A stretch of 64,000 nt of DNA from Pseudomonadota bacterium (GTDB taxonomy: Bacteria; UBA10199; 2-02-FULL-44-16; JAAZCA01): positions 1,456 to 65,455 of the forward strand of contig JAFGMW010000116.1 in the NCBI GenBank assembly GCA_016927275.1, written 5' to 3'. Shown piece by piece: positions 4,521 to 59,015 of this stretch (the stretch's first letter is position 1; every line of letters starts with the position of its first letter). A program made the translations under genes and the position numbers. Under the pieces are notes generated by a model. The model had not been told where the DNA came from and searched no databases. It was given only the letters and a program-made list of their open reading frames with translations.

Positions 4521-5732
4521 CTAGCCCAGAGCCTCAGGCTTTCTCCTCCCCGCCTGCCACTGCCTGTAGGAGAGGGTGCGGCAGAACCCGTGCGAGGCCT
4601 TGTTGAGCCCGAACTCATCGTGTTCAAAGCTCACCAGGGCCTTCCCGTAAAGGGAAAAAGGCGATGTCCTACCGGTTATGAACATGTGGCCGTTCTGGAT
4701 CTTGAGGCTGATCGTCCCGGTGAGCACACGGCTCGCCTCGGCGAAGTAGGCTTCTATCGCCTTCCTGGCGTCCGAGTGCCACAGCCCGTCGTAGACCAGC
4801 TCGGCATACCTCCTGCCCAGCTGGGATGATATTCCAAGGACGTTGCGGTCCCAGCACATGTGTTTGAGCACCTTGCAGGCGTAGTGGAGGATCGTTCCCC
4901 CGGGCGTCTCGTAGATGCCGCGGCACTTGATCCCGTTGGTCCGTTCCTCCACCATGTCCGCCACACCTATCCCGTGCTCTCCGCCGATCCCGTTGAGCGC
5001 CTGGAGCAGTCGCGCCGCCGACAGCCTTTCACCGTCGAGGCCGACTGGGATCCCCTCCTTGAACTCGATCGCAACCTCGGTCGGCATGTTTACGCAATGT
5101 GTGTGCGGCCTCGTCCACTCGTATATCCTCCCGGGGTCGAACTCCTTTTCCACCTCCTCGAGTATCTCTCCCTCGCACGATCTGTGGAGGAGGTTCACGT
5201 CGACGCTGTAGACGCTCGAGGCGCCGCCGGCGTCGAAGCCCCTGGACTCGAGGAAGCCGACCAGGTCGCTGCGGCCCTTGTAGTCCCAGATCTTCCACGG
5301 GGCGATGATCTCCATCTCCGGGACGAGATAGGCCCACGCCAGCTCGAAGCGGATCTGATCGTTGCCCTTTCCCGTGCATCCGTGCGCGATTGCGCGGGCG
5401 CCCTTCGCCTTTGCAATCTTCGCCACCCTCTCGGCTATCAATGGCCTGCCGAGCGCCGTGCCCAGCAGGTAGTCGTCCTGGTAGATCGCGCCGGCCCTCA
5501 CCGCCGGGAAGACGTAGTCGCGCGTGAGCTCCTCCTTGAGGTCCTCGAAGATGAACTCCGCTGCGCCGAGCTCCTTCGCCCTGCGCGCGAGCCAACCCTC
5601 GTCGGGCGCGTTGCCGAGGTCGGAGCAGTACGCGATCACCTCCGCGTCGTATTTCTCTACGAGCCACGGGATTATTGCCGATGTGTCCAGTCCGCCCGAA
5701 TATGCCAGCACGATCAGTTTTTTCTCCATCAC
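4521..5732 (-). CDS. argG: argininosuccinate synthase
   Basis: N-terminal AYSGGLDTS PP-loop motif. 403 aa, colinear with ArgG. Located upstream of argH. Confidence 0.95.
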   Translation of the reverse strand: MMEKKLIVLAYSGGLDTSAIIPWLVEKYDAEVIAYCSDLGNAPDEGWLARRAKELGAAEFIFEDLKEELTRDYVFPAVRAGAIYQDDYLLGTALGRPLIAERVAKIAKAKGARAIAHGCTGKGNDQIRFELAWAYLVPEMEIIAPWKIWDYKGRSDLVGFLESRGFDAGGASSVYSVDVNLLHRSCEGEILEEVEKEFDPGRIYEWTRPHTHCVNMPTEVAIEFKEGIPVGLDGERLSAARLLQALNGIGGEHGIGVADMVEERTNGIKCRGIYETPGGTILHYACKVLKHMCWDRNVLGISSQLGRRYAELVYDGLWHSDARKAIEAYFAEASRVLTGTISLKIQNGHMFITGRTSPFSLYGKALVSFEHDEFGLNKASHGFCRTLSYRQWQAGRRKPEALG

Positions 5733-5813
5733 CCCTCCTTTACATTAATATGCGCGACTAAGCATAAATAGTCACATTATACAAGTAAAAATGGGTTAAT
5801 TTATGATTTCATC

Positions 5814-5890: not shown

Positions 5891-8800
5891 CTATGAGCGC
5901 ATCGCTATCACCTGCAGCGCGGCATCGGTGCGGTATTTTTCAAGGGCCGCGACGGCGGCATTGCGGACGACCTCGTCCGGGTCGCGGGTGAGCTCTACCG
6001 CGCGCCTGGCCGATTCGGCGCAGTCGAAATGGGGGAGGGCCTGCGCCATCCGCAGCCGCACGACGGGATTCTCGTCGGTGCTCCTGGCTATGATCCAGGG
6101 CAGGATGCGCTCGTCCTCCGTGATGCTGAGCGCAGTGGCGACGACTGACCGCACCTCGTCATCGTTCGTGTGCAGGTAATGAGCCAGCCTGGGCACGTAT
6201 GGCGCCGTGTCCAGGCCGGTCCTCTTTAAAGCCGCGACAGCGCTTGCCGCTATTATAATGAGCTTCTGCGGCGCTTTCTCGGTCTCCAGCATGTCGAATA
6301 TGCTGTTCAGCCCATCTGCGGGCTTCAGCGCAAGGAGCGACTGCGCGGTGAACAATATCACCGTCGAGTCCTTTTCGGTCCTCAGCATCTCCTCCAGCAT
6401 CGGTGCGGCGCTCATAGGCTGGCGGAACATGCTTATCGCCTGCAGGGCGAGGAGCTTCAGGGTTGGAGAGTTCTCCGCCGAGCCCTCCTTGCCTGCGACG
6501 AGCGGCATGTCCATCATCGCCATGTGAAGGAGATCGCTGTCCGTGCAGTTATCAGGCATCTCCAGCGGATTCAGGATGGGCTTGCCGGTTGACTCCAGCG
6601 GGCTCTGCGTGATCCTGTCCATCATGGCGATCCAGTCCCTTTGATTGCGCCTCGGCGGTTCAAAGACCATGTCCCTCTTTCCGCGAGGCGAATTCGAGGC
6701 GCGCCCGACCCTCTTCGCTGTATTGTGGTAGCGCTCCAGGTCCCTGGCCAGCAGAGCGGCCACGTCCGGCGCATTCCACTTCATGAGAGCGTGCACTGCC
6801 AGGTATTTCACGCGAAGGTCCCTGTCGCCGGCCAAGTTTACGATCGATCTGATGAGCTCGATGCTCGGCCTCTCGATCTCCCTGTGGGAGGGGGTGCCCT
6901 TCCTCGGATCCGGCGGACCCTCGATCTCCGCCTCCGGCTGAGCGCCGCTCGCTTCCGGCTGCATATCCGTGATCATGGCCCTCAACGCCGCGATCCTCAC
7001 GTCGGGGTTTTCGTGATTCGAGAGGTTCTTCAGGTGACTCATCTTCTCCGCATCGTCCAGCAGTACGGCAGCCATTGCGGAGGCGATTTTGAAATGCGGT
7101 GAGCTGCGCTCCATGCCCAGCGTCTTCTTGACCCATGCGATCGCCTCATCCGACCTGTCCCCTTTCTTGAAGCAGGCGACAAGCAGCGCAGGGTGAGCCG
7201 CCGGATATCTCTCGAGGCTCTCTATGAGCATCGGGATGTCCGGTATCTGCGACGATCCCGTCGCCTTTTGAACCAGGCGGGTGATGATCGGGATGTACAC
7301 TTCGAAGCGGAGGTCCATGCCCGCAGGGGTTCTGCCGTTGGCTGCGGCGGCCTTGCCCGCAAGGTGGGCGATGATCCCGGCGGTGTGAACGGGATCGTCC
7401 AGCAGATCGTCAAATCTCTGGAATATCGCCTTGTAGCTTGCGGCGTCGAGCCCCCTGCCGTTCAATGATTTTTTATTGTTGAGCTTCTCCTGCAGATCTA
7501 TCGCCCAATCGACAAACGAGAGGGGGGAGATCGTTGCGTAGCGTCTGGCCAGGATCCTGGCCTTGATCCCCTGGAGCCTCAGCCTGTTGGCTTCCGCCCT
7601 CTTCCATTGGTTGCCCACGTGGTCCCCGGGAGCCCCTGTGTTCAGCGGATTGTTTCTCGTGAGAGTCATTATCGGGCTGACGACCGTTTGTTCGAGCATC
7701 AGGCCCACGGTTTCAGGATCGTAGAGCATGTCCGGATGGCTTTCGGTGTCAAAGTGACCGCCGTTCATGATCCTGGCCAGGAAGGCGTCGTCGCTTTCGG
7801 CCCACTTCTCTATGAGGGGGATGGAGTCTATGGACCTCAGTTTCTTAAGATGCTCGAGGGTGCTGCCGAATCTTAGGGCCGCCTCGGCTTCGAAGCCGTC
7901 CTCCGGGATCGTTGCGCGCGCCCTAGCGAGGGCGGCTCTGGATTCGGGAAAGTCGTCCACGAGCGGGTTGGCTTTGAAGTGGGCGGCCAGCTCCCTGCCC
8001 AGACCGGGTATTGCGCTGAGGATGTCGGGGTTGCGCATTATCTCCGAGTGGATGCGGTCTTCGCCCGACCGCTCGGTTCGGCCGCCCGCGCTCCATCTCG
8101 GTTCTTCCGGCTCTTCCCGGCCCGGGCCGAAGTCGTCTATGAAGATGTCATCTCCAGCCTTGTCGCGCGTCAGGTGCTCGAACAGCGGGGCGTTTTGTGA
8201 TATGAGCTTCGTCGCTATCTCGATCAGGAAGGGATGTTCGTCGAGAGACTCCGGCCGCCCCTTTATCCTCTTAACCGCCGCAGAGACCATCTTGGGATAC
8301 GCCTCGCTCTCGGCCCTCTCCTCCGCCTTCTTGGCCTCACGCTTCAAGATAATTTCTGTTGGAAGTGAAAGAAGCCCGTCGGATGGATCATCGATATCAA
8401 GCCTTTCCAGCAGGGCTGAGCCGCTCACCATCCTGTCGATGTTCATTTCAAGGCTGGACACGTCCATCGCGGACCAGAGCCTCAAGAAGGCCTCCTTAAG
8501 CTCCGACTCCTTGATCTCCCCGAGAGCGTAGGCGTAGAGATACTCCCCGATGTTCTCGCTGCTTCCGCGTTTGACGTCCATGATCACGTTGGCCCTGAGC
8601 TTGAGCCTCTCTTCGTCCGGGTCGCTTTCGTCGACGCTGAATGGCGCGTATATCTCGTGAAAGGGGACGGCCAGCACAGACCCGCCGAAAACATGGCCGG
8701 CCTTGAGCCATCGCATGCGCTCCCCTGAGTCGCTCCTGTCTCCGAAGAACCAGTCGTCGCTACCTTCCAGCACCATGACCATGTCCTCGTTCATCTGATT

Positions 8801-23930: not shown

Positions 23931-24947
23931 ATGGCCATGGGGGGTAAAAAAATCAAGGTTAAGGTTAAGGCTAAGGCTAAGGCTAAGGCTAAGGTTAAGC
24001 CTAAGCCTAAGCCTAAGCCTAAACTTAAGCCTAAACCTAAGCCTAAACCTAAGCCTAAACCTAAACCTCAAGTTAAGGCCAAATTGCCTGAGTGGCCGCC
24101 CCCCCTTGAGATCTACTCTTCAACGGATCCGCTCTCTCTGATGCGCAAGGTGCTGGCCCGCTGCGACCAGGCTTTTCTATCGCGCCAGGTCTCATATTCG
24201 CTCTCCACCTCAGAGGGGCTGGGGGAGGTGTGGGTGGACGAGGAGGGGATATCCTCTGCGATGGACACCCTTCTCATGCACCTTGTTTCGCGTTCCCCTC
24301 GCAAATCGGTGATCTCCGTGCAGCTTTGCCCGTTCGCCATGCACAGCGGCTCAGGCGTTCAGATCGCCTTTGAGGCCATCGACAGGTTGATCAGGGACGT
24401 GGACCACAAGGCGTTCATGGCCTCGATCTTCGACGGGGGGGCGGACCAGGAGACCGGCGTCTCGCTCGCCGCCCTGAGGGAGAGGGTGATGGCGCAGCAC
24501 GGAAGGCTCTGGGCGGAGCTGCCGGGCGGGAACAGGACCCTGTTCAAGATAGTGCTCCCCTCGACGAGGGACGTGGCCAGGCAGGCCCTTCTCGGCCAGC
24601 GCACCTTCAGGTGCGACATCGCCATCACCAACTACCCGCTCGTGAGAAAGCGCTTCGGCCTGATGAAGGGCAGGCACCTAGTGGAGCAGGTGGAGCGCTA
24701 CGTGAAATCGCTGGTGAGGTTCCCTATCGACATGGTGACCGCGGACCTCGACGCAGGCAGCATCACCGCGATCTACGAGGCCCAGCCGGGGGCCGCGGAG
24801 TCGGTCTACTCCCGCATATCCAAGAGGCTGGGGCAGGAGACCTTCCACATCGGCAAAAGACCGGTGGAGCTCCTCTTCAGGTACGAGCTCAAGGGCGGCG
24901 CCGGCCATTCTGCGCCATCGGCCGGCCGAAACCGGGGGAAAGGCTAG
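23931..24947 (+). CDS. hypothetical protein with Lys-rich (KV/KA/KP)n N-terminal tail and a degenerate histidine-kinase-like ATPase (HATPase_c-like) domain
   Basis: Residues 7-50 (KIKVKVKAKAKAKAKVKPKPKPKPKLKPKPKPKPKPKPKP) are encoded by GGTTAA/GGCTAA/GCCTAA hexamer repeats. Downstream, ETGVSLAALRERVMAQHGRLWAELPGGNRTLFKIVLP resembles the HATPase G2 box. Confidence 0.5.
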   Translation: MAMGGKKIKVKVKAKAKAKAKVKPKPKPKPKLKPKPKPKPKPKPKPQVKAKLPEWPPPLEIYSSTDPLSLMRKVLARCDQAFLSRQVSYSLSTSEGLGEVWVDEEGISSAMDTLLMHLVSRSPRKSVISVQLCPFAMHSGSGVQIAFEAIDRLIRDVDHKAFMASIFDGGADQETGVSLAALRERVMAQHGRLWAELPGGNRTLFKIVLPSTRDVARQALLGQRTFRCDIAITNYPLVRKRFGLMKGRHLVEQVERYVKSLVRFPIDMVTADLDAGSITAIYEAQPGAAESVYSRISKRLGQETFHIGKRPVELLFRYELKGGAGHSAPSAGRNRGKG

Positions 24948-28898: not shown

Positions 28899-29918
28899 AT
28901 GGGTGAAAGGGTAACGGTCATCGGCGCAGGCTCCTGGGGGACGGCCCTGGCGAAGTTGCTCGCTGAGAAGGGCCTCGATGTCGCGCTCTGGGCGCACGAG
29001 CCCGAGGTCGCGGAGGGGATAAACCGAAAGCGCCGAAACCCCCTCTATCTCGCAGAGGTGACGCTGCCCGAGGGCATCGCAGCCACCGACCGACTGGAGG
29101 GCGCTGTGGCAGGCGCCTCTGTGGTCGTCTCGGCGGTGCCCTCGCACGCGCTGCGCAGGATCTGGCAGGCCCTTGCCTCCGAGCTGCCGGATGACGCCCT
29201 GGTGGTAAGCTGCACCAAGGGCATCGAGGCGGAGGGACTGAAGCTCATGAGCCAGGTGCTCGCCGACTGCCTTCCGTCGCATCCGGCGAAAAACCGCGTG
29301 GTGCTCTCGGGCCCGTCGTTCGCCGCCGAGGTCGCGAGGGGCCTTCCCACCTCGGTGGTCGTCGCGGGGACCGACGCGGGCGTCACGGCGCGCGTCCAGG
29401 AGATCTTCCGCACGCACGCGTTCCTCACATTCACCGGCGACGACGTGATAGGCGTGGAGGTGGGCGGCGCGGTCAAGAACGTCATCGCCATCGCGGCCGG
29501 GGTCTCAGACGGACTCGCCCTCGGCCACAACACTCGCGCCGCGATCATCACGCGCGGCCTCTACGAGATGATAAAGATCGGGCAAGCGCTCGGCGCCAAT
29601 CCCATCACCTTCGCGGGGCTCTCCGGCATCGGAGACCTCGTGCTCACCTGCACCGCGAACCTCTCGCGCAACCACACCCTCGGCTTCGACCTCGGCCGGG
29701 GCAGGGCGCTTTCCGACCTCAGGCGCGGCATGCGCATGGCCGTGGAGGGGCTGCCCACCGCTGAGGCGGTCCACAGGCTCGCCGCGAAGCACGGCCTCAA
29801 CATCCCCATCTGCGACGCGATGTATCGAATCCTCTACGAGGGGCTGGAGCCGAGGATGGCGGTCGAGGAGCTCTGCAGCATGCCGCTCGCCCTCGAACTC
29901 GGCGCACTTTTACACTGA
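28899..29918 (+). CDS. gpsA: NAD(P)H-dependent glycerol-3-phosphate dehydrogenase
   Basis: N-terminal GAGSWGTALA Rossmann motif. Colinear with GpsA over 339 aa. Confidence 0.95.
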   Translation: MGERVTVIGAGSWGTALAKLLAEKGLDVALWAHEPEVAEGINRKRRNPLYLAEVTLPEGIAATDRLEGAVAGASVVVSAVPSHALRRIWQALASELPDDALVVSCTKGIEAEGLKLMSQVLADCLPSHPAKNRVVLSGPSFAAEVARGLPTSVVVAGTDAGVTARVQEIFRTHAFLTFTGDDVIGVEVGGAVKNVIAIAAGVSDGLALGHNTRAAIITRGLYEMIKIGQALGANPITFAGLSGIGDLVLTCTANLSRNHTLGFDLGRGRALSDLRRGMRMAVEGLPTAEAVHRLAAKHGLNIPICDAMYRILYEGLEPRMAVEELCSMPLALELGALLH

Positions 29919-29939
29919 GTGAGGCAGACGGAGCGGGAC

Positions 29940-30360
29940 GGGGTGCAGCGCTTCCGGCCCTTTCCTCGTCGACTGGCGCGCTCGCCTCGCTACTCGTCGC
30001 GAAAAGATCGCTGGTTTCCTGGCATTTTAGCCCATGCTGTCGGTACGAGTTAGGTGTCTTCCCCTGTCAGCCTCTAACTCGTGAAACCAGCGATCTTTTC
30101 GCATCCTCATACGCTCGGTCTCGCATCCCGAGCACTCAATGCCTTGAGTGCTCGGGAGGAGCGCCTTGATGTCTCCTCCGGAAAGGGCCGGAATCGCTGC
30201 CGAACGCATGAGAGGCTGAATAGTGCCGATTTGACGGAGCGGATCGGTGCGCTCTTCGCAGCGGGGCTCACGGAGGCCGGGTGCCGTAGCCTGTTATGAT
30301 CCGGCCGACGTGGCCCAGCGAGGAGCCGGCGCTTGAGGCGACGAGCGTAGCGAGAAGAGC
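29940..30360. repeat. ~420-nt non-coding region made of nested and serial perfect palindromes (structured RNA or MITE-like element)
   Basis: 20-bp perfect inverted repeat cgcgaaaagatcgctggtttc / gaaaccagcgatcttttcgc enclosing an inner cgagttag/ctaactcg hairpin. 13-bp hairpin cccgagcactcaa-tgcc-ttgagtgctcggg. Outer imperfect IR ctcgcctcgctactcgtcgc / gcgacgagcgtagcgag. IR gcgctcttcgc / gcgagaagagcgc. Confidence 0.55.
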
Positions 30361-30418
30361 GCACCGATCCGCTCTGTCTGCAGAGCTCTTTATGGCAAAT
30401 CGGCGCAGGGGATAAGAC

Positions 30419-30724
30419 GTGTTGACCGGGGGGCGGATTGGTTATAAAGGCGGGGGCATGGCGAAGAAGAAGGCCAGGGGGCGCAGGAAACCGGCGGGCG
30501 GTTTCGATCTCGAGTTCTCGATCGAGGAGGACGGCCTGCTCCGCGGGCTCATGGACTCCAAGGGCAAGAAGGTCGAGGTCATAGCCTTCGGCATCGTCTA
30601 CTCGGGGGTCTTGGAGAGCGTGGACCTCGACGGCGGCCAGATCGTGATCGCCGACGGAGAGGACCGCGCGATGATCGAGATCGAGCGCATAGAGTCGCTC
30701 ACCCCCCTCGAAAACTACCTATGA
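30419..30724 (+). CDS. small hypothetical protein (101 aa, or 88 aa from MAKKKARG)
   Basis: ORF with basic N-terminus. Its stop overlaps the next start (ATGA at 30721-30724). Confidence 0.35.
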   Translation: MLTGGRIGYKGGGMAKKKARGRRKPAGGFDLEFSIEEDGLLRGLMDSKGKKVEVIAFGIVYSGVLESVDLDGGQIVIADGEDRAMIEIERIESLTPLENYL

Positions 30725-31092
30725 AGCGGGCCGCGGCGGTCTCACTTGCACTGTTTGTCATCGCATCCTCTCTCTGCGCGCTGGCGGGGGAGCAAGGAGG
30801 GGCCGCATCCGCGCGGGCGGAGGAGTCGGGGTTCGCGATCATTATCCTCGGCACGCGCAGCGCGGCCGACGTGAGGGTCATCGAGAAGAACCTGCGCTCG
30901 CTCCCGTACGTATCGCTCATGGTGCCCACGGTCATGAGCCAGCAGCACCTCGAGTTCCAGGGCAGGATGAGCGCCTCCGACGAGGCCATGGTCGCGGACG
31001 TGGCAGGGCTTGCGCAGGACCGCTACGAAGTGAAGGCCCGCCGCGAGCACAGGCGGGGGCTGGTGATAACGCTGAGAAAAATCAAGGGATGA
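30721..31092 (+). CDS. small secreted hypothetical protein, 123 aa
   Basis: N-terminal signal peptide MKRAAAVSLALFVIASSLCALA. Translationally coupled to the preceding ORF. Confidence 0.4.
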   Translation: MKRAAAVSLALFVIASSLCALAGEQGGAASARAEESGFAIIILGTRSAADVRVIEKNLRSLPYVSLMVPTVMSQQHLEFQGRMSASDEAMVADVAGLAQDRYEVKARREHRRGLVITLRKIKG

Positions 31093-31160
31093 GAGGCTGA
31101 GAGGCTGAGAAGCTGAGAGGCTGAGAAGCTGAGAGGCTGAGAAGCTGAGAAGCTGAGAAG
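31088..31160. repeat. (GAGARGCT)9 octamer tandem repeat
   Basis: gagaggctgagaggctgagaagctgag... begins at the stop codon of the upstream small gene. Every unit contains TGA, so stops occur in all three frames. Confidence 0.7.
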
Positions 31161-31172
31161 CAAAGAAAAGGC

Positions 31173-37140: not shown

Positions 37141-37617
37141 CTATTCGTTCACGTTCACGATCTTCTCGCCGCGGGTCATGGCGTCCAGCGTGCTGTACGG
37201 GTACGCGGTGAGCTGCGTCTCCTTCCCGTCGTTCGTGACGAGGTAGAATGCCACCCCGCCCTCGAAGCTCTGGTTGAGCTGCATGGCCCGGTTGAACGCC
37301 TCGGTGTTGATCGCCACCCAGTGGTACTTGGCTTGGTCCTTGTTCGGCTCGTAGATCGCGCACCAGAGGTAGGCATGCCGGCCGTCCAGGAGGTAGGTGC
37401 CGTTGGTCGCGTGCCAGTATGCGGTGTCGTTCCTGCCCAGCTTCCTGATCTTTATGGCCCGGTCGTATGACTTCACCACCTCCACGTCCGCCGGCTGCGT
37501 CGCGACGATCGTGTGCACCGCCGCCCCCTTGCCCACCGGGACGTCCTTGGCCGATGCAGCTGATGCGAAGAGCGCCAGCGCCGCGACTGCCGTTGCGATT
37601 GCTTTGACCTTCTTCAT
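37141..37617 (-). CDS. secreted hypothetical protein (~158 aa from MKKVKAIA)
   Basis: Signal peptide MKKVKAIATAVAALALFASAASA. Lies immediately upstream of cstA on the same strand. Confidence 0.5.
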   Translation of the reverse strand: MKKVKAIATAVAALALFASAASAKDVPVGKGAAVHTIVATQPADVEVVKSYDRAIKIRKLGRNDTAYWHATNGTYLLDGRHAYLWCAIYEPNKDQAKYHWVAINTEAFNRAMQLNQSFEGGVAFYLVTNDGKETQLTAYPYSTLDAMTRGEKIVNVNE

Positions 37618-37670
37618 GAAACCCTCCTTTTGGGATGTGGGACTTATATCACACGCGGAGGCGATGGCAA

Positions 37671-39521
37671 TCATATCCCCATGCCTTCCATGGCATCGTC
37701 TCTCGCTTTGCCGATCCGGCTGCGGTAGGCACGGATAATGTCGCCGTGGGTGATGAGGCCGATGATCCTGCCCGGGTCGTCGGGGTCCACGACCGGCAGC
37801 CTGTCCACGTCGCTTATCTCCAGCCTCTCGGCTATCTGCGCGATGCTCTCGTCCGGAAAGGCCACCGGCGGAGGGGCGAGCATCAGCTCCCCTGCGACCA
37901 CCATCTCCCCGAGCTCGCCTATCAGCGACAGCGCCGCCCTGACCTGCGCGAAGGTGATAAGCCCCGCGAGCTTTCCCTGGCCGTCCACGACCGGGAAGCC
38001 GTGCTGGGCCCCGCGCTGGATCCTGTCGATGAGATCCACCAGCTTCGTGTCCTCGCCTATGCTCTCAAATTTTTCGCGCATGACGTCGCGCACCGCCATC
38101 ATCGCCAGTGCGTCCTCCTTTGGGGCTCCGAGCCTTATGCCGCGCCTGATGAGTTTAAGCGTGTATATGGTCTCCTCGCTGAGCAGGCGCGAGACGAGCG
38201 TGGCGATGACGACGGCGGTCATCACAGGGAGGATGATCTCGTAGTCGTTGGTCATCTCGAATACGATGATGATCGCGGTGATGGGGGCGCGGGTGGCGCC
38301 TGCGAAGAGGGCGCCCATGCCCACCAGCGCGTAGGCACCGGGTGAGCCGACTATCCCTGGCAGCACGACCGAGAAGGCCCGCCCCGTGAAGCCGCCGAGC
38401 ATTGCGCCGATGAAGAGCGATGGCGAGAATACCCCGCCGGAGCCACCGGAGCCGAGGGTGAGAGACGTCGCCAATATCTTCGCTGCGGACAGCACTATGA
38501 GGGAAAGTGCGCCCAGATGGCCGAGCATCGCAGCCTCCGTGGCCTCGTGGCCCGTGCCCAGGACCTGCGGCATGGCGATCCCCATGGCCCCGAGGAGGAG
38601 GCCGCCGAGCGCGGGTTTGAGCCACTCGGGCATGCGGATTCCGTCGAACACATCCTCGATCTTGTAGAGAATCTTCACGAAGGCGCGGGCGTAGAGCGCT
38701 GCGATCGCTCCCAGGGCCGCGAACAGGAAGAGCTCCCAGTGGCTCACCAGGTCGTACACGGGCACGTGGAAGAAGAAACCCTCGCCTAGTATGAGCCTGG
38801 AGACGGCGGATGCGGTGACCGATGAGATGACGACCATGGAGAACGCGCTGGCTGCGAACTCCTGGAGTATCACCTCCATGGCGAAGAGCACGCCGGCGAT
38901 CGGCGTGGCGAATGTGGCGGAGATGCCGCCGGCTGCGCCGCATGCGACGAGCATCTTGGTCATGCCGCCGGGCATGCGGAAGAGCTGGCCGACCGACGAA
39001 CCGAACGCGGAGCCGATCTGCACGATCGGCCCCTCCTTCCCGGCGGAGCCGCCGCTGCCTATGCAGATCGCGCTGGCCAGCGCCTTGACGACGCCGACTA
39101 CAGGCCTGATCTTCCCCCCCCTTCGCGCCACGGCCAGCATCACCTCGGGCACGCCGTGTCCCCTCGCTTCACGCGCGAAACGCGTGACAAGCAGGCCCAC
39201 GAGCAGACCTCCAAGCGCCGGTATGAACAGGACAGCCCAGCGCCACGGCCCTGTGAATATGGAGCCCTGTGCGCCGTATGCTATGCCGGCGATGGCGTCG
39301 ATGAGCCACTGGAAGACGCAGGAGACGAGCCCGGTGATGAGGCCGACCAGGAGGGCGAGCGCCAGCAGCTTGCGGGTGGCACCGGGCATCGAGAGCGCCC
39401 AGAAGATCCTGCCCGGATATGCCTTGATCCTTGCGAGGAGGGATCTTCTTTTGTCTGTTTGTTCGGTTTCGTCCATCTGTAGTCCGGGTCGGGTTCGCAG
39501 GTATGATGAAAGGCGGCTCAA
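37671..39521 (-). CDS. ClC-family chloride channel / H+-Cl- antiporter with C-terminal CBS pair
   Basis: Selectivity-filter motifs GSGGSAGKEGP and GGVFSPSLFIGA. C-terminal CBS domains (VRDVM..., ERLEISDVDRLPVV). Confidence 0.9.
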   Translation of the reverse strand: MSRLSSYLRTRPGLQMDETEQTDKRRSLLARIKAYPGRIFWALSMPGATRKLLALALLVGLITGLVSCVFQWLIDAIAGIAYGAQGSIFTGPWRWAVLFIPALGGLLVGLLVTRFAREARGHGVPEVMLAVARRGGKIRPVVGVVKALASAICIGSGGSAGKEGPIVQIGSAFGSSVGQLFRMPGGMTKMLVACGAAGGISATFATPIAGVLFAMEVILQEFAASAFSMVVISSVTASAVSRLILGEGFFFHVPVYDLVSHWELFLFAALGAIAALYARAFVKILYKIEDVFDGIRMPEWLKPALGGLLLGAMGIAMPQVLGTGHEATEAAMLGHLGALSLIVLSAAKILATSLTLGSGGSGGVFSPSLFIGAMLGGFTGRAFSVVLPGIVGSPGAYALVGMGALFAGATRAPITAIIIVFEMTNDYEIILPVMTAVVIATLVSRLLSEETIYTLKLIRRGIRLGAPKEDALAMMAVRDVMREKFESIGEDTKLVDLIDRIQRGAQHGFPVVDGQGKLAGLITFAQVRAALSLIGELGEMVVAGELMLAPPPVAFPDESIAQIAERLEISDVDRLPVVDPDDPGRIIGLITHGDIIRAYRSRIGKARDDAMEGMGI

Positions 39522-39554
39522 ATGTCAACATTGTGACATGATGCGCAGGCGGGT

Positions 39555-40199
39555 TCAGATCTTTCCCTCGATTTCACGGTTGAACCTCGCGAAGAACTCC
39601 AGCATGAACGCGTGCCGCTCCCCGGCGAGGCGCCTGCCCTCTTTGGTCAGCATCCTCTCGCGGACGTGGCGGAGCTTGTGCAGGAACTCGCGAAATGCGG
39701 TGTCCTCGGGGCCGTACGCGGGCGCCTTGAGCGGATCGGTGCCGGGCGGGTTGTGGAGCCTGGCCCCGTTCTCGCCGGCGAAGAGGAATGCGCGGCCTAT
39801 GCCGACCGCGCCGATGGAGTCGAGTTTGTCCGCGTCGAAGAGGGACCGCGCCTCAAGCGTGTCGGGCCGGGATTCGCCGCGGAAGCGGTGGTGCTCGATG
39901 CAGTGCACGACGGCGTCCGCTATGCGGGCCTCCACTTCGTGCCTTTCTAAGATGGACCGGGCGAGCCTCGCCCCCTCCTTCGCGTGGCACACCTCGCCGA
40001 GCGACTCGTCCTCCCTGTGCCTGCCGATGTCGTGCAGGAGTGCCGCCATCTCCAGTATTTCAAGGTCCGCACCCTCTCTTCTGCCTATGTGCAGGGCGAG
40101 CGAGCGGACCCTCTCGGTGTGGTCCCAGCCGTGGCTGCCCCTGGAGCGGGTGAAATGGGCCCTGGCCTCCTCCGTTACGGCCTCAATCGCCTTTCGCAT
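39555..40199 (-). CDS. HD-domain phosphohydrolase
   Basis: H...HD motif (GWDHTERV...LLHDIGR) and downstream conserved His/Asp residues. Confidence 0.75.
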   Translation of the reverse strand: MRKAIEAVTEEARAHFTRSRGSHGWDHTERVRSLALHIGRREGADLEILEMAALLHDIGRHREDESLGEVCHAKEGARLARSILERHEVEARIADAVVHCIEHHRFRGESRPDTLEARSLFDADKLDSIGAVGIGRAFLFAGENGARLHNPPGTDPLKAPAYGPEDTAFREFLHKLRHVRERMLTKEGRRLAGERHAFMLEFFARFNREIEGKI

Positions 40200-40291
40200 G
40201 ACTGATATCTCCCTTTTGCGCCCCTGGCCGCTAGGCGGTTGTCATTTGCGGCGAAAATGCTAAACTGCCGCACAAAGTCAAGGGGGCCGAT

Positions 40292-46794: not shown

Positions 46795-46978
46795 ATAACT
46801 CGTGGCTTCGGGGCCTGTCAGCGGGTCGGGGGACACTGTCTCGCTACGGCTCGTTCGCTCAGGCGCCGCTCACTCGCCTGCGTCTCTTCGCCGCGGTCAT
46901 CGCAGGGCTCTTGATTCGCGGCGAATTCACACGCCGCTCAACAGGGTCCCCCGACCCGCTGACACCCGAAGCCTCCAA
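46795..46978. repeat. MITE-like element upstream of queG: ~33-nt near-identical terminal inverted repeats flanking ~95 nt
   Basis: Left arm ggcttcggggcctgtcagcgggtcgggggacactgtc. Right arm acagggtcccccgacccgctgacacccgaagcc. The interior contains ctcgctac/ctcgttcgc motifs resembling the 29940-30360 element. Confidence 0.55.
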
Positions 46979-46990
46979 GGTAATAGAGTG

Positions 46991-47830
46991 ATGAAGGAGC
47001 TGATAAAGAAGAGGGCGATCGAGGTCGGTTTTGCGCTGTGCGGGGTGACCACGGCCGAGCCGGTCGATGAGCTTGCGCATCTGCAGGGGGCGATTGCAAA
47101 CGGCAGGGTCGCCTCGATGAACTATCTGGCGCGCGACCCTGCGGCGCGCTGCGACCCGCGTTCGCTCCTCGCCGGCGCGCGCTCGGTGATATGCTGTGCG
47201 CTTGCGTACGGCGAATCGGGGATCGGCGACCGGGGATCGGGGACCATGGATCGGGAAAGCTCTTTCAGGTCCCGGGTCCCGGGTCCCGGGTCCCGAGTTT
47301 TGAGGGCCAGGTTCGCGCGCGGGGCCGAGTATCACGCGGAGGTGGGGCGGAGGCTTACGCTACTGTGGGATGCGATTCGAGAGCGGGCGCCCGGCGCCAG
47401 CGCGAAGGCCTGCTGCGACACGAGCCCGATTCTCGAGAAGGCCCTGGCACAGCGCGCTGGGCTGGGCTGGATCGGCAGGCACACGGTGCTGGTGAACCGC
47501 GAGCTGGGCTCGTGGTTCGTGCTGGGCGAGATCGTGACCGATCTCGAGCTCGAGCCGGACTCCCCGCACGATGATCTCTGCGGCGACTGCACAAAGTGCC
47601 TGGACGCCTGCCCTGCGCGCGCGATCCTCTCGCCGCGCACGCTCGACGCCCAGAAGTGCATCTCCTATCTCACCATAGAAGCCCCGCGCCTTGAGATTGG
47701 GATCGGGGATCAGGGATCAGGAACCGGGAGAACCCTTCCATGTCCCGGGTCCCGGGTCCCGGGTCCCGGGTACGGCTGCGACCTCTGCCAGGAGGCATGC
47801 CCTTATAACAATAGAGGATGCGCCCAATAG
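46991..47830 (+). CDS. queG: epoxyqueuosine reductase (QueG)-like, carrying two in-frame repeat insertions and an apparently short C-terminus
   Basis: DUF1730-like N-terminal region, then two 4Fe-4S motifs CGDCTKCLDACP and CDLCQEACPYN. Insertions at 47213-47300 and 47700-47785 are both in frame. The ORF stops 6 codons after the second cluster, whereas QueG proteins are usually ~100 aa longer. Confidence 0.7.
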   Translation: MKELIKKRAIEVGFALCGVTTAEPVDELAHLQGAIANGRVASMNYLARDPAARCDPRSLLAGARSVICCALAYGESGIGDRGSGTMDRESSFRSRVPGPGSRVLRARFARGAEYHAEVGRRLTLLWDAIRERAPGASAKACCDTSPILEKALAQRAGLGWIGRHTVLVNRELGSWFVLGEIVTDLELEPDSPHDDLCGDCTKCLDACPARAILSPRTLDAQKCISYLTIEAPRLEIGIGDQGSGTGRTLPCPGSRVPGPGYGCDLCQEACPYNNRGCAQ

Positions 47831-48136
47831 CGCCCACTCTGCCGCTTTGATGAAACGGTTCAGGGTGCTTTTCGCAGCGTGGCTCGAGCCTGCCTGCCGG
47901 CAGGCAGGGAGGCCGGATTCAGCAGCCTATAAGTACCGGCCGACGAAAGCCCCCGATGACCTTCAGACAGTCTGGTTCATCTAATGATGAAATGCCGGGG
48001 CGTGGGGACTGCGCCCCGGCCGAGACGGCGTTTGAGGCGAGGAGGGATAGCGAGAAAAGCACCTTGAACCGTTTCGTCTGCTGAGTCAGCCTTCCCAGGT
48101 TGACATGTGAACGGGGAAGGGCCTAGCGCGTGGGAC

Positions 48137-53777: not shown

Positions 53778-54214
53778 GGCGCCACTATAGGCAAGCAGGG
53801 ACCTCAAGGCAAGCCCGGCCTTATCAATCCGGAACGCATGTTTGCTTGGTTCGGCGACGGATCGGGAAAGACTGCCGAGCGGCGTCAGGAGGCGTCGCTT
53901 TCAAAGCCTATGGTGCTGCGGCGCCGAGTGCGCAGGCGAGCGAACGGCGTATGAGTGAGCGAGCCGTAGCGAGGAGGCTTTCCCGATCCGTCGCCGTGCC
54001 CGAAGCAAAAAAAGGACCCTCCAACACTATCGCTGAAGGGCCCAAAGGGGGGGGTCGAACTTTGTGACTCCCGATTTCTCTCTTCGCTTCCACAGTAGTT
54101 ATCGGCAGGGAGGGGTACCCAAGTTGCGTGGGCCGCAAAAAATTCCCACAAAGAGGTAACCATTTGTTTTAATTAAGTTTTACTGCGAAAATGGGTTTTT
54201 TTCGGCAAAAAATT

Positions 54215-57570: not shown

Positions 57571-58938
57571 ATGAAGAAAAGGGGAGTGCTCCTATTAATC
57601 GATGATGATCGTGATTTTGCCTCCACCTTTGCCGATAGGCTGGGATCGCTGGGGTTTGAGGTGTCCGTCGCCGGCACCGCCTCAGAGGCCCTGGGTGCGC
57701 TCGATGAGGTTTCCGCCGATTGCGTGCTCGTCGACATAGGACTCCCGGACATGTCCGGAATGGAGCTCATCGGCAGGATCGCGGAGAGGGACGCGAAGCT
57801 CCCGATAGTCATGGTCACCGGCACGACGAAGATCGACACCGCGATCGAGGCGATCAAGAAGGGCGCGTACGACTACGTGGTAAAGCCCATCGATTTCGAC
57901 TCCCTGCTCATCAAGCTCGGAAACGCCGTGGAGTCGCGCCACGCGTTTCGAACCATAGCTCACTTCGAGCAGGAGGTTGCGAAGGAGCACGGCTTCGGCC
58001 GGTTCGTGTTCCGAAGCGAGCTCATGAATGGGACGGTGGAGCATCTGAAGCAGCTTGCCGAGACGGACGCCACTGTCCTCATCACGGGCGAGAGCGGAGT
58101 GGGCAAGGAGCTGGCGGCGAGGACGATACACTACAACGGTCCGCGCAGGCTCCGGCCGTTCGTGCCTGTGAGCTGCGCCGCGGTGCCCGAGACCCTCATC
58201 GAGAACGAGCTCTTCGGGCACGAGAAGGGCTCGTTCACCGACGCGTTCGAGAGGCAGCCGGGCAAGTTCGAGCACGCGGCCGGCGGCACCATATTCCTCG
58301 ACGAGATCGGGGACCTCTCCCCCGGCATACAGACCAAGCTTTTGCGGGTGCTCCAGGAGAAGAAATTCCACAGGATCGGCGGGGTCAACGAGGTGAGCGT
58401 CGACGTCCGGGTGATCGCAGCCACCAACAGGGACCTGGACGAGGCGGTGAGGAAGAACGAGTTCAGGTCGGACCTCTTCTACAGGCTCTCGGTGCTTCCC
58501 GTGCGCATGCCCTCTCTCAAGGAGAGGGGGGAGGACATCATCCCTCTCGCGCGCCACTTCCTGGGTATATTCTCCAGGAAAGTCGGCAAGCGCTTTGAGC
58601 GTTTCTCCAAAGAGGCGGAGGAGAGGCTCGCCGCATACCCCTGGCCGGGCAACGTGAGGGAGCTTCAGAACGCCATAGAGCGGGCCGCCGTCTTCGGCCG
58701 GCCGCCGGAGATCAGAGACGACGACCTCGCGCTGGGCAGGATCAACGGGATCGTCACGGCACCCGCCCCGGTCGAGGAGCCGCTGCCCGATTCGCTCGAT
58801 GAGCTGGAGGCGCTTCACATAGGGAGGACGCTGGGCAGATTCCAGGGCAACATATCCAAGGCCGCCGCGGCGCTCGGCATCGGTCGCGACACACTGTACC
58901 GGAAGATAAGGCAGTACGGAATCAAGCAAAACACGTGA
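57571..58938 (+). CDS. sigma-54-dependent response regulator (NtrC family)
   Basis: Receiver domain (LLIDDD...VLVDIGLPDMSG). AAA+ sigma-54 activator core (GESGVGKELAARTIH, GHEKGSFTDA resembling GAFTGA, ESELFGH-like). C-terminal Fis-type HTH. Confidence 0.9.
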   Translation: MKKRGVLLLIDDDRDFASTFADRLGSLGFEVSVAGTASEALGALDEVSADCVLVDIGLPDMSGMELIGRIAERDAKLPIVMVTGTTKIDTAIEAIKKGAYDYVVKPIDFDSLLIKLGNAVESRHAFRTIAHFEQEVAKEHGFGRFVFRSELMNGTVEHLKQLAETDATVLITGESGVGKELAARTIHYNGPRRLRPFVPVSCAAVPETLIENELFGHEKGSFTDAFERQPGKFEHAAGGTIFLDEIGDLSPGIQTKLLRVLQEKKFHRIGGVNEVSVDVRVIAATNRDLDEAVRKNEFRSDLFYRLSVLPVRMPSLKERGEDIIPLARHFLGIFSRKVGKRFERFSKEAEERLAAYPWPGNVRELQNAIERAAVFGRPPEIRDDDLALGRINGIVTAPAPVEEPLPDSLDELEALHIGRTLGRFQGNISKAAAALGIGRDTLYRKIRQYGIKQNT

Positions 58939-59015
58939 CACGTAACCTGTGACCTGTAACCGGTGGTAAATGACAGGATGTTAGACCGGTCACGGGTCAC
59001 GTGTTACGTGTAACG
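58930..59015. repeat. inverted tandem-repeat hairpin built from GTGAC/GTAAC units
   Basis: cacgtgacacgtaacctgtgacctgtaaccgg ... ccggtcacgggtcacgtgttacgtgtaacgg. Located between the sigma-54 regulator stop and the polX start. Confidence 0.6.

Follow-up and report, generated by a model that had tools for sequence, protein, structure and literature searches.

The window analysed here is a stretch of 64,000 nucleotides (64 kb) from the assembly of a Pseudomonadota bacterium (GCA_016927275.1, contig JAFGMW010000116.1, forward-strand positions 1,456 to 65,455), and all coordinates refer to it unless another contig is named. In this window, gpsA ends with a stop codon at 29916–29918 and is followed by a pair of small open reading frames (ORFs). 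Alignment of orthologues places the start of the downstream small ORF most likely at ATG 30458 rather than at GTG 30419; the gap between the two genes is therefore 539 nt long (29919–30457) instead of 500 nt. The gap holds a lineage-specific insertion, made of two adjacent and oppositely oriented members of a palindromic non-coding repeat family together with a solo arm. We interpret these repeats as probable non-autonomous mobile DNA resembling miniature inverted-repeat transposable elements (MITEs) and REPINs (hairpin-forming doublets of repetitive extragenic palindromes, REPs). The repeat family is previously undescribed and of this well-known kind.

The gap downstream of gpsA

An inverted-repeat search (seed 12, arms at most 400 nt apart) revealed six repeats of at least 16 nt in the 64-kb window. 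Three of them are found in the gap, and the remaining three belong to further copies of the family. Within the gap, the arms 29999–30018 and 30083–30102 form a 20-nt inverted repeat that is 100% complementary (the perfect arm is 20 nt, not 21 nt) and that encloses an inner hairpin of approximately 9–10 bp at about 30044–30082. The segments 30126–30139 and 30144–30157 form a 14-bp hairpin with a 4-nt loop. A 25-nt inverted repeat (96%) is made by 30233–30257 and 30354–30378, and a 21-nt inverted repeat (95%) by 29945–29965 and 30180–30200. The region 29975–30000 is also complementary to 30337–30365. Every inverted repeat listed in a preliminary description, made from the sequence alone, was recovered by the search or by direct reading. 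That description was right about the 20-bp perfect stem and about the hairpin with the 4-nt loop, but it gave 8 bp for the inner hairpin and 13 bp for the second one, both of which are longer, and it overlooked the 21-nt repeat.

The + strand of the 500-nt gap folds with −258 kcal/mol compared with a shuffle mean of −211.5 kcal/mol (z −7.66), and the − strand folds with −248 kcal/mol (z −8.13). On both strands, 0 of 100 shuffles were as good. A chance origin of the structure is thus excluded. Only one terminator-like site, a weak one at 30371–30386, was found in the gap, where 0.7 are expected by chance. None of the long stems is followed by the T-run that marks an intrinsic terminator, and the earlier remark that the stems lack a U-tract stands. 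A search of the whole window against Rfam 15 at gathering thresholds returned two tRNAs only. With the gap at a permissive E-value, Rfam returned chance miRNA-like hairpins, the best with 25 bits against a threshold of 75. The concatenated six-frame translation of the gap had no match at E ≤ 10 among 5.8 billion proteins.

We compared the window with the contigs of relatives (L001/L028, L002 and L006), whose gpsA is 77, 70 and 68% identical to that of the window. L001, L002 and L006 all have PilZ, gpsA, the two small ORFs and the FG-GAP genes in this order, and blastn showed that L028 is collinear with the window across 19.1–43.4 kb, except for a gene-content difference of approximately 2.7 kb at 37.6–40.2 kb. 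Only 42 nt in L001, 12 nt in L002, and 45 nt in L006 separate the gpsA stop codon from the small ORF, compared with 539 nt in the window. Since these spacers are so short, the sequence comparison indicates that about 500 nt (roughly 29922–30421) have been added here, between the gpsA stop codon and a promoter-like box. This box, TTGACC-N15-TATAAA (30422–30448, + strand), lies before the ribosome-binding site of the small ORF. The same box follows the gpsA stop codon in L001 and L006, where the spacers are essentially the box alone (TTGACC/G, approximately 15 nt, TATACA/TAATAG). The consensus promoter scan passed over the box of the window; its spacer is merely 15 nt.

This arrangement bears on an idea in the preliminary description, namely that the gap is a regulatory leader of the small-protein pair. 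A cis-regulatory leader or riboswitch would fit highly structured DNA that precedes the small ORFs on their own strand. However, the structure does not stand at the orthologous position: the site is empty in the three syntenic relatives, which retain the small ORFs at 59–80% identity. The insertion is not a leader of these ORFs, because it lies upstream of the promoter-like box common to L001 and L006, and the same sequences adjoin the unrelated genes queG, dinB, priA/def and xseA. The comparison of orthologous sites refutes the leader reading, and we leave it only a negligible chance. For annotation, a false lead is thus removed, as the small ORFs keep their own promoter-like box. The other suggestion of that description, stacked insertions of a palindromic mobile element or a composite MITE, is borne out by the empty site and by the presence of two members of a dispersed family. 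Its interpretation is accordingly supported in part, in the mobile-element half.

Architecture of the repeats and their copies

The preliminary description had proposed a search for the 20-nt arm elsewhere. In a scan of JGI metagenomes, this 20-mer gave 14 loci, 12 of which have it inside two conserved coding sequences. At another locus, L022, there is a 23-nt match only, which neither of the covariance models R1 and R2 (below) detected. The one true copy is on contig L015 (JGI Ga0265297_10002837), where blastn aligned 5903–6157 (copy L015a) with window positions 29945–30199 at 86.7% identity over 256 nt. A second, inverted copy of 203 nt is located at 7307–7509 of the same contig (L015b). The region 29945–30200 is thus matched in L015 as a unit and has the 21-nt inverted repeat at its ends, which makes it a discrete element, here called D-type. 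Model R1 was built from the D-type copies. Model R2 was built from three elements of a second type, called C-type (C1, C2 and C3).

The insertion consists, in order, of a solo arm fragment, the D-type element (−), a 31-nt spacer, the C-type element C1 (+), and approximately 40 nt of unexplained DNA. The solo arm fragment (GGCAGACGGAGCGGGACGGGGTGC; 29922–29946) is a diverged direct copy of the C-type 5′ arm at 30233–30252 (direct repeat, 80%), and it also forms an inverted repeat with the C-type 3′ arm (78%). The D-type element is 256 nt long (29945–30200; R1, 290.8 bits), and its sense strand, which we define by the conserved purine-rich core, is the − strand. The two arms of its closing stem (29945–29965 and 30180–30200) covary in L015a and L015b. 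The adjoining conserved block (29966–29998, −; sense CGACGAGTAGCGAGGCGAGCGCGCCAG) is homologous to the C-type core. In this block, CGACGAGTAGCGAG is unchanged in all three D-type copies, and the motif GTAGCGAG is also found in C-type copies. Hairpin A (29999–30102) comprises the 20-bp perfect stem and its inner hairpin, and it is missing in C-type copies. The loop of the inner hairpin (sense GGCUGACAGGGGAAGACA) is conserved, and its stem covaries, being almost wholly replaced between D-type copies. A further conserved block (30103–30125, −; sense …GAGACCGAGCGTATGAGGAT) includes CGTATGAG, which is unchanged in the D-type copies and is also present in C3. It is followed by hairpin B (30126–30157; 14-bp perfect stem, 4-nt loop).

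Hairpin B is an optional module. It is present in L015a with one compensatory pair, and L015b has neither hairpin B nor a small hairpin. Since the 203-nt copy does without both, the nested palindromes represent optional parts of a single element and not separate elements. We also considered hairpin A as a separate nested MITE. This was rejected, as the corresponding position of L015b also holds a hairpin, with the same loop and a different, covarying stem.

The 31-nt spacer (30201–30231) separates the D-type element and C1, which are arranged head to head. C1 is 148 nt long (30232–30379, +; R2, 128.8 bits, E 2.5e-20), with a closing stem formed by 30233–30257 and 30354–30378. Its asymmetric core GCGAGGAGCCGGCGCTTGAGGCGACGAGCGTAGCGAG (30318–30354, +) is made of conserved alignment columns. 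The remaining approximately 40 nt (30380–30421) are missing in the relatives too, and their first bases, GCAGAG, resemble the right flank of another copy, C4.

The R1 scan of the window gave a weak match at 53854–53994 that carries CGTATGAG and GTAGCGAG, as do the segments 30232–30379 and 46814–46966. C2 (46814–46966, −; R2, 157 bits) is located directly upstream of queG and is flanked by an outer hairpin, GGCTTCGGG / CCCGAAGCC. C3 (53850–53998, +; R2, 153.8 bits) is located between priA and def. C4 (47847–48080, +; R2, 46.1 bits, E 5.9e-06) lies between queG and dinB and measures 234 nt, including a 104-nt internal insertion. The 64-kb window thus contains at least five copies of the family. 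All are intergenic, and their neighbours are all housekeeping genes, among them argG/H/R, serS, gpsA, queG, dinB, def, fmt and priA. Scans of viral contigs with the arm and core patterns gave no match. Neither the gap nor C3 had a blastn match in plasmids, phages or E. coli genomes, and a literature search with the core 14-mers found no paper.

A relative, L029, has a C-type copy (R2, 94 bits) directly upstream of queG, matching C2 in both site and orientation. In sequence, this copy is closer to C3 (88% identity) than to C2 (only 77%). Judged from these identities, the queG-upstream copies may reflect either old orthology or repeated insertion at a preferred site. The queG–dinB spacer provides a second empty site: it is 51 nt long in L029, compared with 276 nt in the window, where C4 is inserted. 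Filled and empty forms are thus available for two orthologous sites, this one and that downstream of gpsA. C4 is placed between the queG stop codon and a conserved GGTTGACATGTGAACGG box. The box is seen upstream of dinB in both genomes (window 48095–48112; L029 5471–5487), and it is likely a promoter or operator left intact beside the inserted repeat.

Several candidates were set aside. The pair C2 and C4 could be taken for a composite transposon carrying queG, but queG has the same neighbours in L029. The weak model matches at L028 4972–5072 and window 23954–24070 are a tRNA and a coding repeat rich in Lys, Ala and Pro, respectively. A search with the 21-mer of the C1 arm in a genome collection gave four single matches in unrelated phyla with no wider similarity, which we attribute to chance.

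Every copy of the family has a long closing stem, the sequence of which is variable while the pairing is kept, and an asymmetric purine-rich core of approximately 40 nt adjoining the 3′ arm (…CGGCG..TGAG…GAGCCGTAGCGAG…). Elements C1–C3 measure approximately 148–153 nt, and their closing stems of 22–25 nt differ in sequence. The core common to the C-type is …GCAGGCGAG…CGGCG..TGAG…CGAGCCGTAGCGAG…, and the C- and D-type copies have the asymmetric core …CGTATGAG…GTAGCGAG… in common. Aligned in this way, the D-type reads as a C-type-like core with extra hairpins between CGTATGAG and GTAGCGAG. The arm motif CGGNTCGG / CCGANCCG is conserved in the C-type copies of the window and only partly kept in C4 and the L029 copy.

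The stems covary strongly. In the alignment of five C-type copies, 91% of the cells are paired, and 25 of the 45 pairs have double changes. None of 500 shuffles reached the observed values, and slid controls were 33–47% paired. For the three D-type copies, RNAalifold gave 84 pairs; 96.7% are paired, and 22 of the 84 are changed on both sides, with 7 + 7 double-change pairs in helices 6 and 7 of hairpin A. The sense strand folds better than the antisense strand by 9–25 kcal/mol in all eight copies. By hand count from the alignments, approximately 13 G·U pairs compare with approximately 6 A·C mismatches on the modelled strand, and this excess of G·U on the sense strand is suggestive. An outer hairpin, GGCTTYGGG / CCCRAAGCC, flanks C2, the L029 copy and L015b, and shows a compensatory change from C·G to T·A between C2 and the L029 copy. 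The orientation relative to the neighbouring transcription is mixed (C1 and C4 are co-directional; the D-type element, C2 and C3 run the opposite way), and inspection of the flanks revealed neither a promoter nor a terminator common to the copies.

Probable mobile DNA and alternative readings

The insertion downstream of gpsA is probably best explained by non-autonomous elements of the MITE/REPIN type, whose copying would depend in trans on an enzyme with its gene at another place in the genome. This partner would recognize the conserved core on a folded single strand. We propose such recognition because it would account for stems that are free to change but remain paired, for the one strand that folds better, and for the apparent lack of target duplications. 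In the present gap, the repeats would have entered the one position able to tolerate them, behind the gpsA stop codon and ahead of the promoter-like box of the two small ORFs. In transcripts reading through from gpsA, the long hairpins would probably act as a 3′ stabilizer or as a barrier, uncoupling gpsA from the downstream pair.

The REPINs, which are mobilized by RAYT tyrosine transposases, are the first known system to compare. In PMC3337134, REPINs are hairpin-forming extragenic doublets with a spacer that is unconserved except for hairpin pairing, and according to a preprint abstract bacterial lineages retain REPIN–RAYT systems over millions of years. The present repeats are likewise extragenic, non-coding and multi-copy, and each copy makes one long hairpin. 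Inside the elements, sequence and length are variable but the pairing is kept, as the double-change pairs illustrate. Long persistence in a lineage, short complementary arm motifs (here CGGNTCGG / CCGANCCG), and a GTAG motif (here in the core) are further likenesses. In contrast to the two identical inverted REP units of a REPIN, the present elements have the single core beside the 3′ arm; GTAG is found 5′ of the 3′ arm and not at the outer REP head. They are also longer (145–256 nt versus approximately 90 nt), their arms diverge strongly between copies, and a RAYT gene (Y1/HUH transposase) was not seen within the 64-kb window. We do not assign the family to the REPINs on this comparison, because the conserved block is single and asymmetric and the RAYT search was confined to 64 kb.

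The likeness to bacterial MITEs such as Correia, RUP and Nezha lies in the small size (here 145–257 nt, under approximately 600 bp), the lack of coding capacity, the terminal inverted repeats (here 21–25 bp, 95–96% complementary), the dispersed intergenic copies that are sometimes adjacent to one another (here five in 64 kb), and the presence or absence at orthologous sites. Unlike in MITEs, the sequences of the terminal repeats are not conserved between copies, no target-site duplication is recognizable, and no parent insertion sequence sharing these ends was seen among the window ORFs. Since neither target duplication nor parent element was found, membership in the classical MITEs is incomplete. 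The enterobacterial repetitive intergenic consensus (ERIC, or intergenic repeat unit, IRU) is also an imperfect palindrome, of approximately 130–150 nt, that is intergenic within operons and, if transcribed, is expected to give RNA hairpins in either orientation. Size variants of ERIC arise through insertions at internal sites, and here C4 (+104 nt) and the D-type (extra hairpins) are size variants too. ERIC copies, however, are far more uniform in sequence, and 5,426 complete E. coli genomes contained no blastn match, hence no similarity was seen to ERIC or to the REP-containing bacterial interspersed mosaic elements (REP/BIME). For the subterminal hairpin ends of IS200/IS605 insertion sequences and their palindrome-associated derivatives, recognition of a folded single strand would explain the covarying stems, the conserved asymmetric motif beside a hairpin, the consistently more stable strand and the apparent lack of target duplications. 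These elements have distinct left and right ends, in contrast to the one closing stem here, and a Y1 transposase or TnpB gene is absent from the window ORFs scanned.

A number of observations weigh against mobile DNA of this type. No transposase, reverse-transcriptase or integrase domain was found in the approximately 37 window ORFs scanned, and the remaining ORFs are syntenic with a relative showing none; with no mobilizing gene among the scanned ORFs, the proposed partner enzyme is hypothetical. The flanks of the eight copies, which come from about three genomes, show no target-site duplication, their ends being imprecise and the empty sites too diverged. The outer flanks differ between sub-groups, so that the exact ends of the elements are uncertain. 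The closing stems diverge between copies far more than typical MITE terminal repeats do. The copy upstream of queG is found at one and the same place in two genomes, and the QueG proteins of the two are only approximately 67–74% identical; this could be a sign of selection for a role in the host and not of selfish spread.

The repeats might instead be multi-copy genes of a structured non-coding RNA, for example one that guides or scaffolds a recombinase or nuclease, or a family of regulatory small RNAs (an sRNA was also suggested in the preliminary description). Selection on RNA function would then maintain the stems, with the copies being gene duplicates or retro-copies. The strong covariation is as in real RNAs, and conserved unpaired blocks and a conserved hairpin loop stand beside fully replaced stems. 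The more stable strand in all eight copies, the excess of G·U over A·C, and the persistence of the queG-upstream copy in two divergent genomes point in the same direction. Yet no copy has a conserved promoter upstream or a terminator downstream of its sense strand, and a promoter for C2 and the L029 copy would fall inside the queG coding start. Perfect or near-perfect stems of 20–25 bp are atypical of functional RNAs, modules are freely gained and lost, the presence of copies varies among relatives at two sites, and Rfam has no match. On balance, we consider RNA genes unlikely. The eight copies give covariation usually seen only in functional RNAs, which serves as a warning that covariation alone cannot tell a structured RNA from a palindromic mobile element.

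A present-day role for the host is a related matter, since REP/BIME and ERIC have been proposed in enterobacteria as mRNA-stabilizing, insulating or protein-binding elements. The copies could have been domesticated as stabilizers of mRNA 3′ ends, as insulators, or as sites at which a nucleoid or topology protein binds the core. Each of the two datable insertions sits precisely in the interval that separates a stop codon from the promoter-like box of the following gene, although such placement is simply where insertions are tolerated. The conservation of the core between genomes (the L029 copy and C3) and the shared queG-upstream position would also fit; the mixed orientation of the copies and the lack of a known protein partner would not. 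We hold domestication to be rather improbable. It is compatible with a mobile origin and concerns the present role, so that it is not a strict rival.

We also give a small chance to a more unusual possibility. The family may be a mobile structured nucleic acid, and not a decayed transposon. It might be an RNA or single-stranded DNA whose core and hairpin loop are recognized by, or guide, a recombinase or nuclease encoded elsewhere, or it might be a retro-copied RNA. The covarying stems would then follow from selection on the folded molecule, and the head-to-head pairs would be the ends of a cargo-carrying unit. Such pairs are formed by the D-type element and C1 in the gap and by the two D-type copies on either side of an AT-rich two-gene cassette in L015. 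C2 and C4 are arranged in the same way around queG, but queG occupies its ancestral position there. An artefact of assembly or amplification, a chimeric fold-back, has to be weighed too, as the contig comes from a metagenome-assembled genome and fold-back chimeras do arise in metagenome assemblies. Diverged copies at five places of the contig, far from its ends, and copies with compensatory differences in independent assemblies of other samples refute it, and its remaining probability is practically nil.

The family, probably one of non-autonomous palindromic repeats, comes from an uncultured proteobacterial-type lineage and has an unusually clear signature of a conserved asymmetric core, free-but-paired stems, and hairpin modules that are gained and lost. 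It is a convenient case for weighing mobilization by an enzyme that recognizes single strands against host function as the force shaping such repeats. Its general interest is modest.

Sequences near the repeats

On contig L015, the two D-type copies (5902–6158, −, and 7307–7509, +) are head to head with their 5′ ends inward. The 1.1-kb cassette between them (6159–7306) has 32–38% GC, compared with approximately 58% for the contig, and encodes a protein of approximately 62 aa and one of approximately 217–224 aa with a hydrophobic C-terminus. A Pfam search with the larger protein gave no match. The cassette has a YhcG/PDDEXK nuclease, an ORF6N protein and a PadR regulator as neighbours, and it looks like acquired cargo bounded by repeats. 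A tandem array of 3.3 copies of the 28-nt unit CAGTCCGCGTCCGCAGTTCAAAAGGGGA (5719–5811, 95% matches) directly follows xseA, approximately 90 nt before the D-type element.

The queG gene of the window contains two in-frame, GC-rich, palindrome-like insertions, at 47217–47300 (GIGDRGSGTMDRESSFRSRVPGPGSRV) and 47698–47770 (GIGDQGSGTGRTLPCPGSRVPGP), which encode Gly/Pro-rich stretches. Owing to these, QueG has 279 aa here compared with approximately 235–250 aa in most relatives. The second insertion is common to P0122 and P0123, and the first to P0123 only. R2 weakly matches the hairpins inside queG in the window, L029 and L030. The insertions may be repeat-derived hairpins tolerated within a coding sequence.

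Downstream of the gap, nine copies of TGAGAAGC (16-nt super-unit, 4.5 copies) form a tandem repeat at 31090–31161, which begins at the stop codon of a 123-aa ORF in the convergent spacer before an FG-GAP gene. The basic N-terminus of the small ORF is very variable in length among relatives, and in the L002 orthologue it contains a low-complexity coding repeat rich in Lys, Ala and Pro (KAKAK…PKPKPK; L002 5042–5130). Another such repeat (window 23940–24070) is at the start of a gene adjoining the tRNA. The approximately 2.7 kb at 37550–40230 that are missing in the otherwise collinear L028 are a difference in gene content and not an insertion sequence; read from the sequence, they seem to encode a ClC-type channel with CBS domains and an HD-domain protein.

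Two further intergenic structures were noted in the window. The 345-nt gap at 544–888 has a stable fold (z approximately −4.9) and contains only a 12-nt inverted repeat, without the motifs of the family. Between the genes for a sigma-54 activator and a PolX/PHP protein, an unrelated hairpin at 58934–59015 has 31-nt arms that are 84% complementary and short repeats of the GTGAC/GTAAC type, and the fold of this gap has a z of approximately −5.7.

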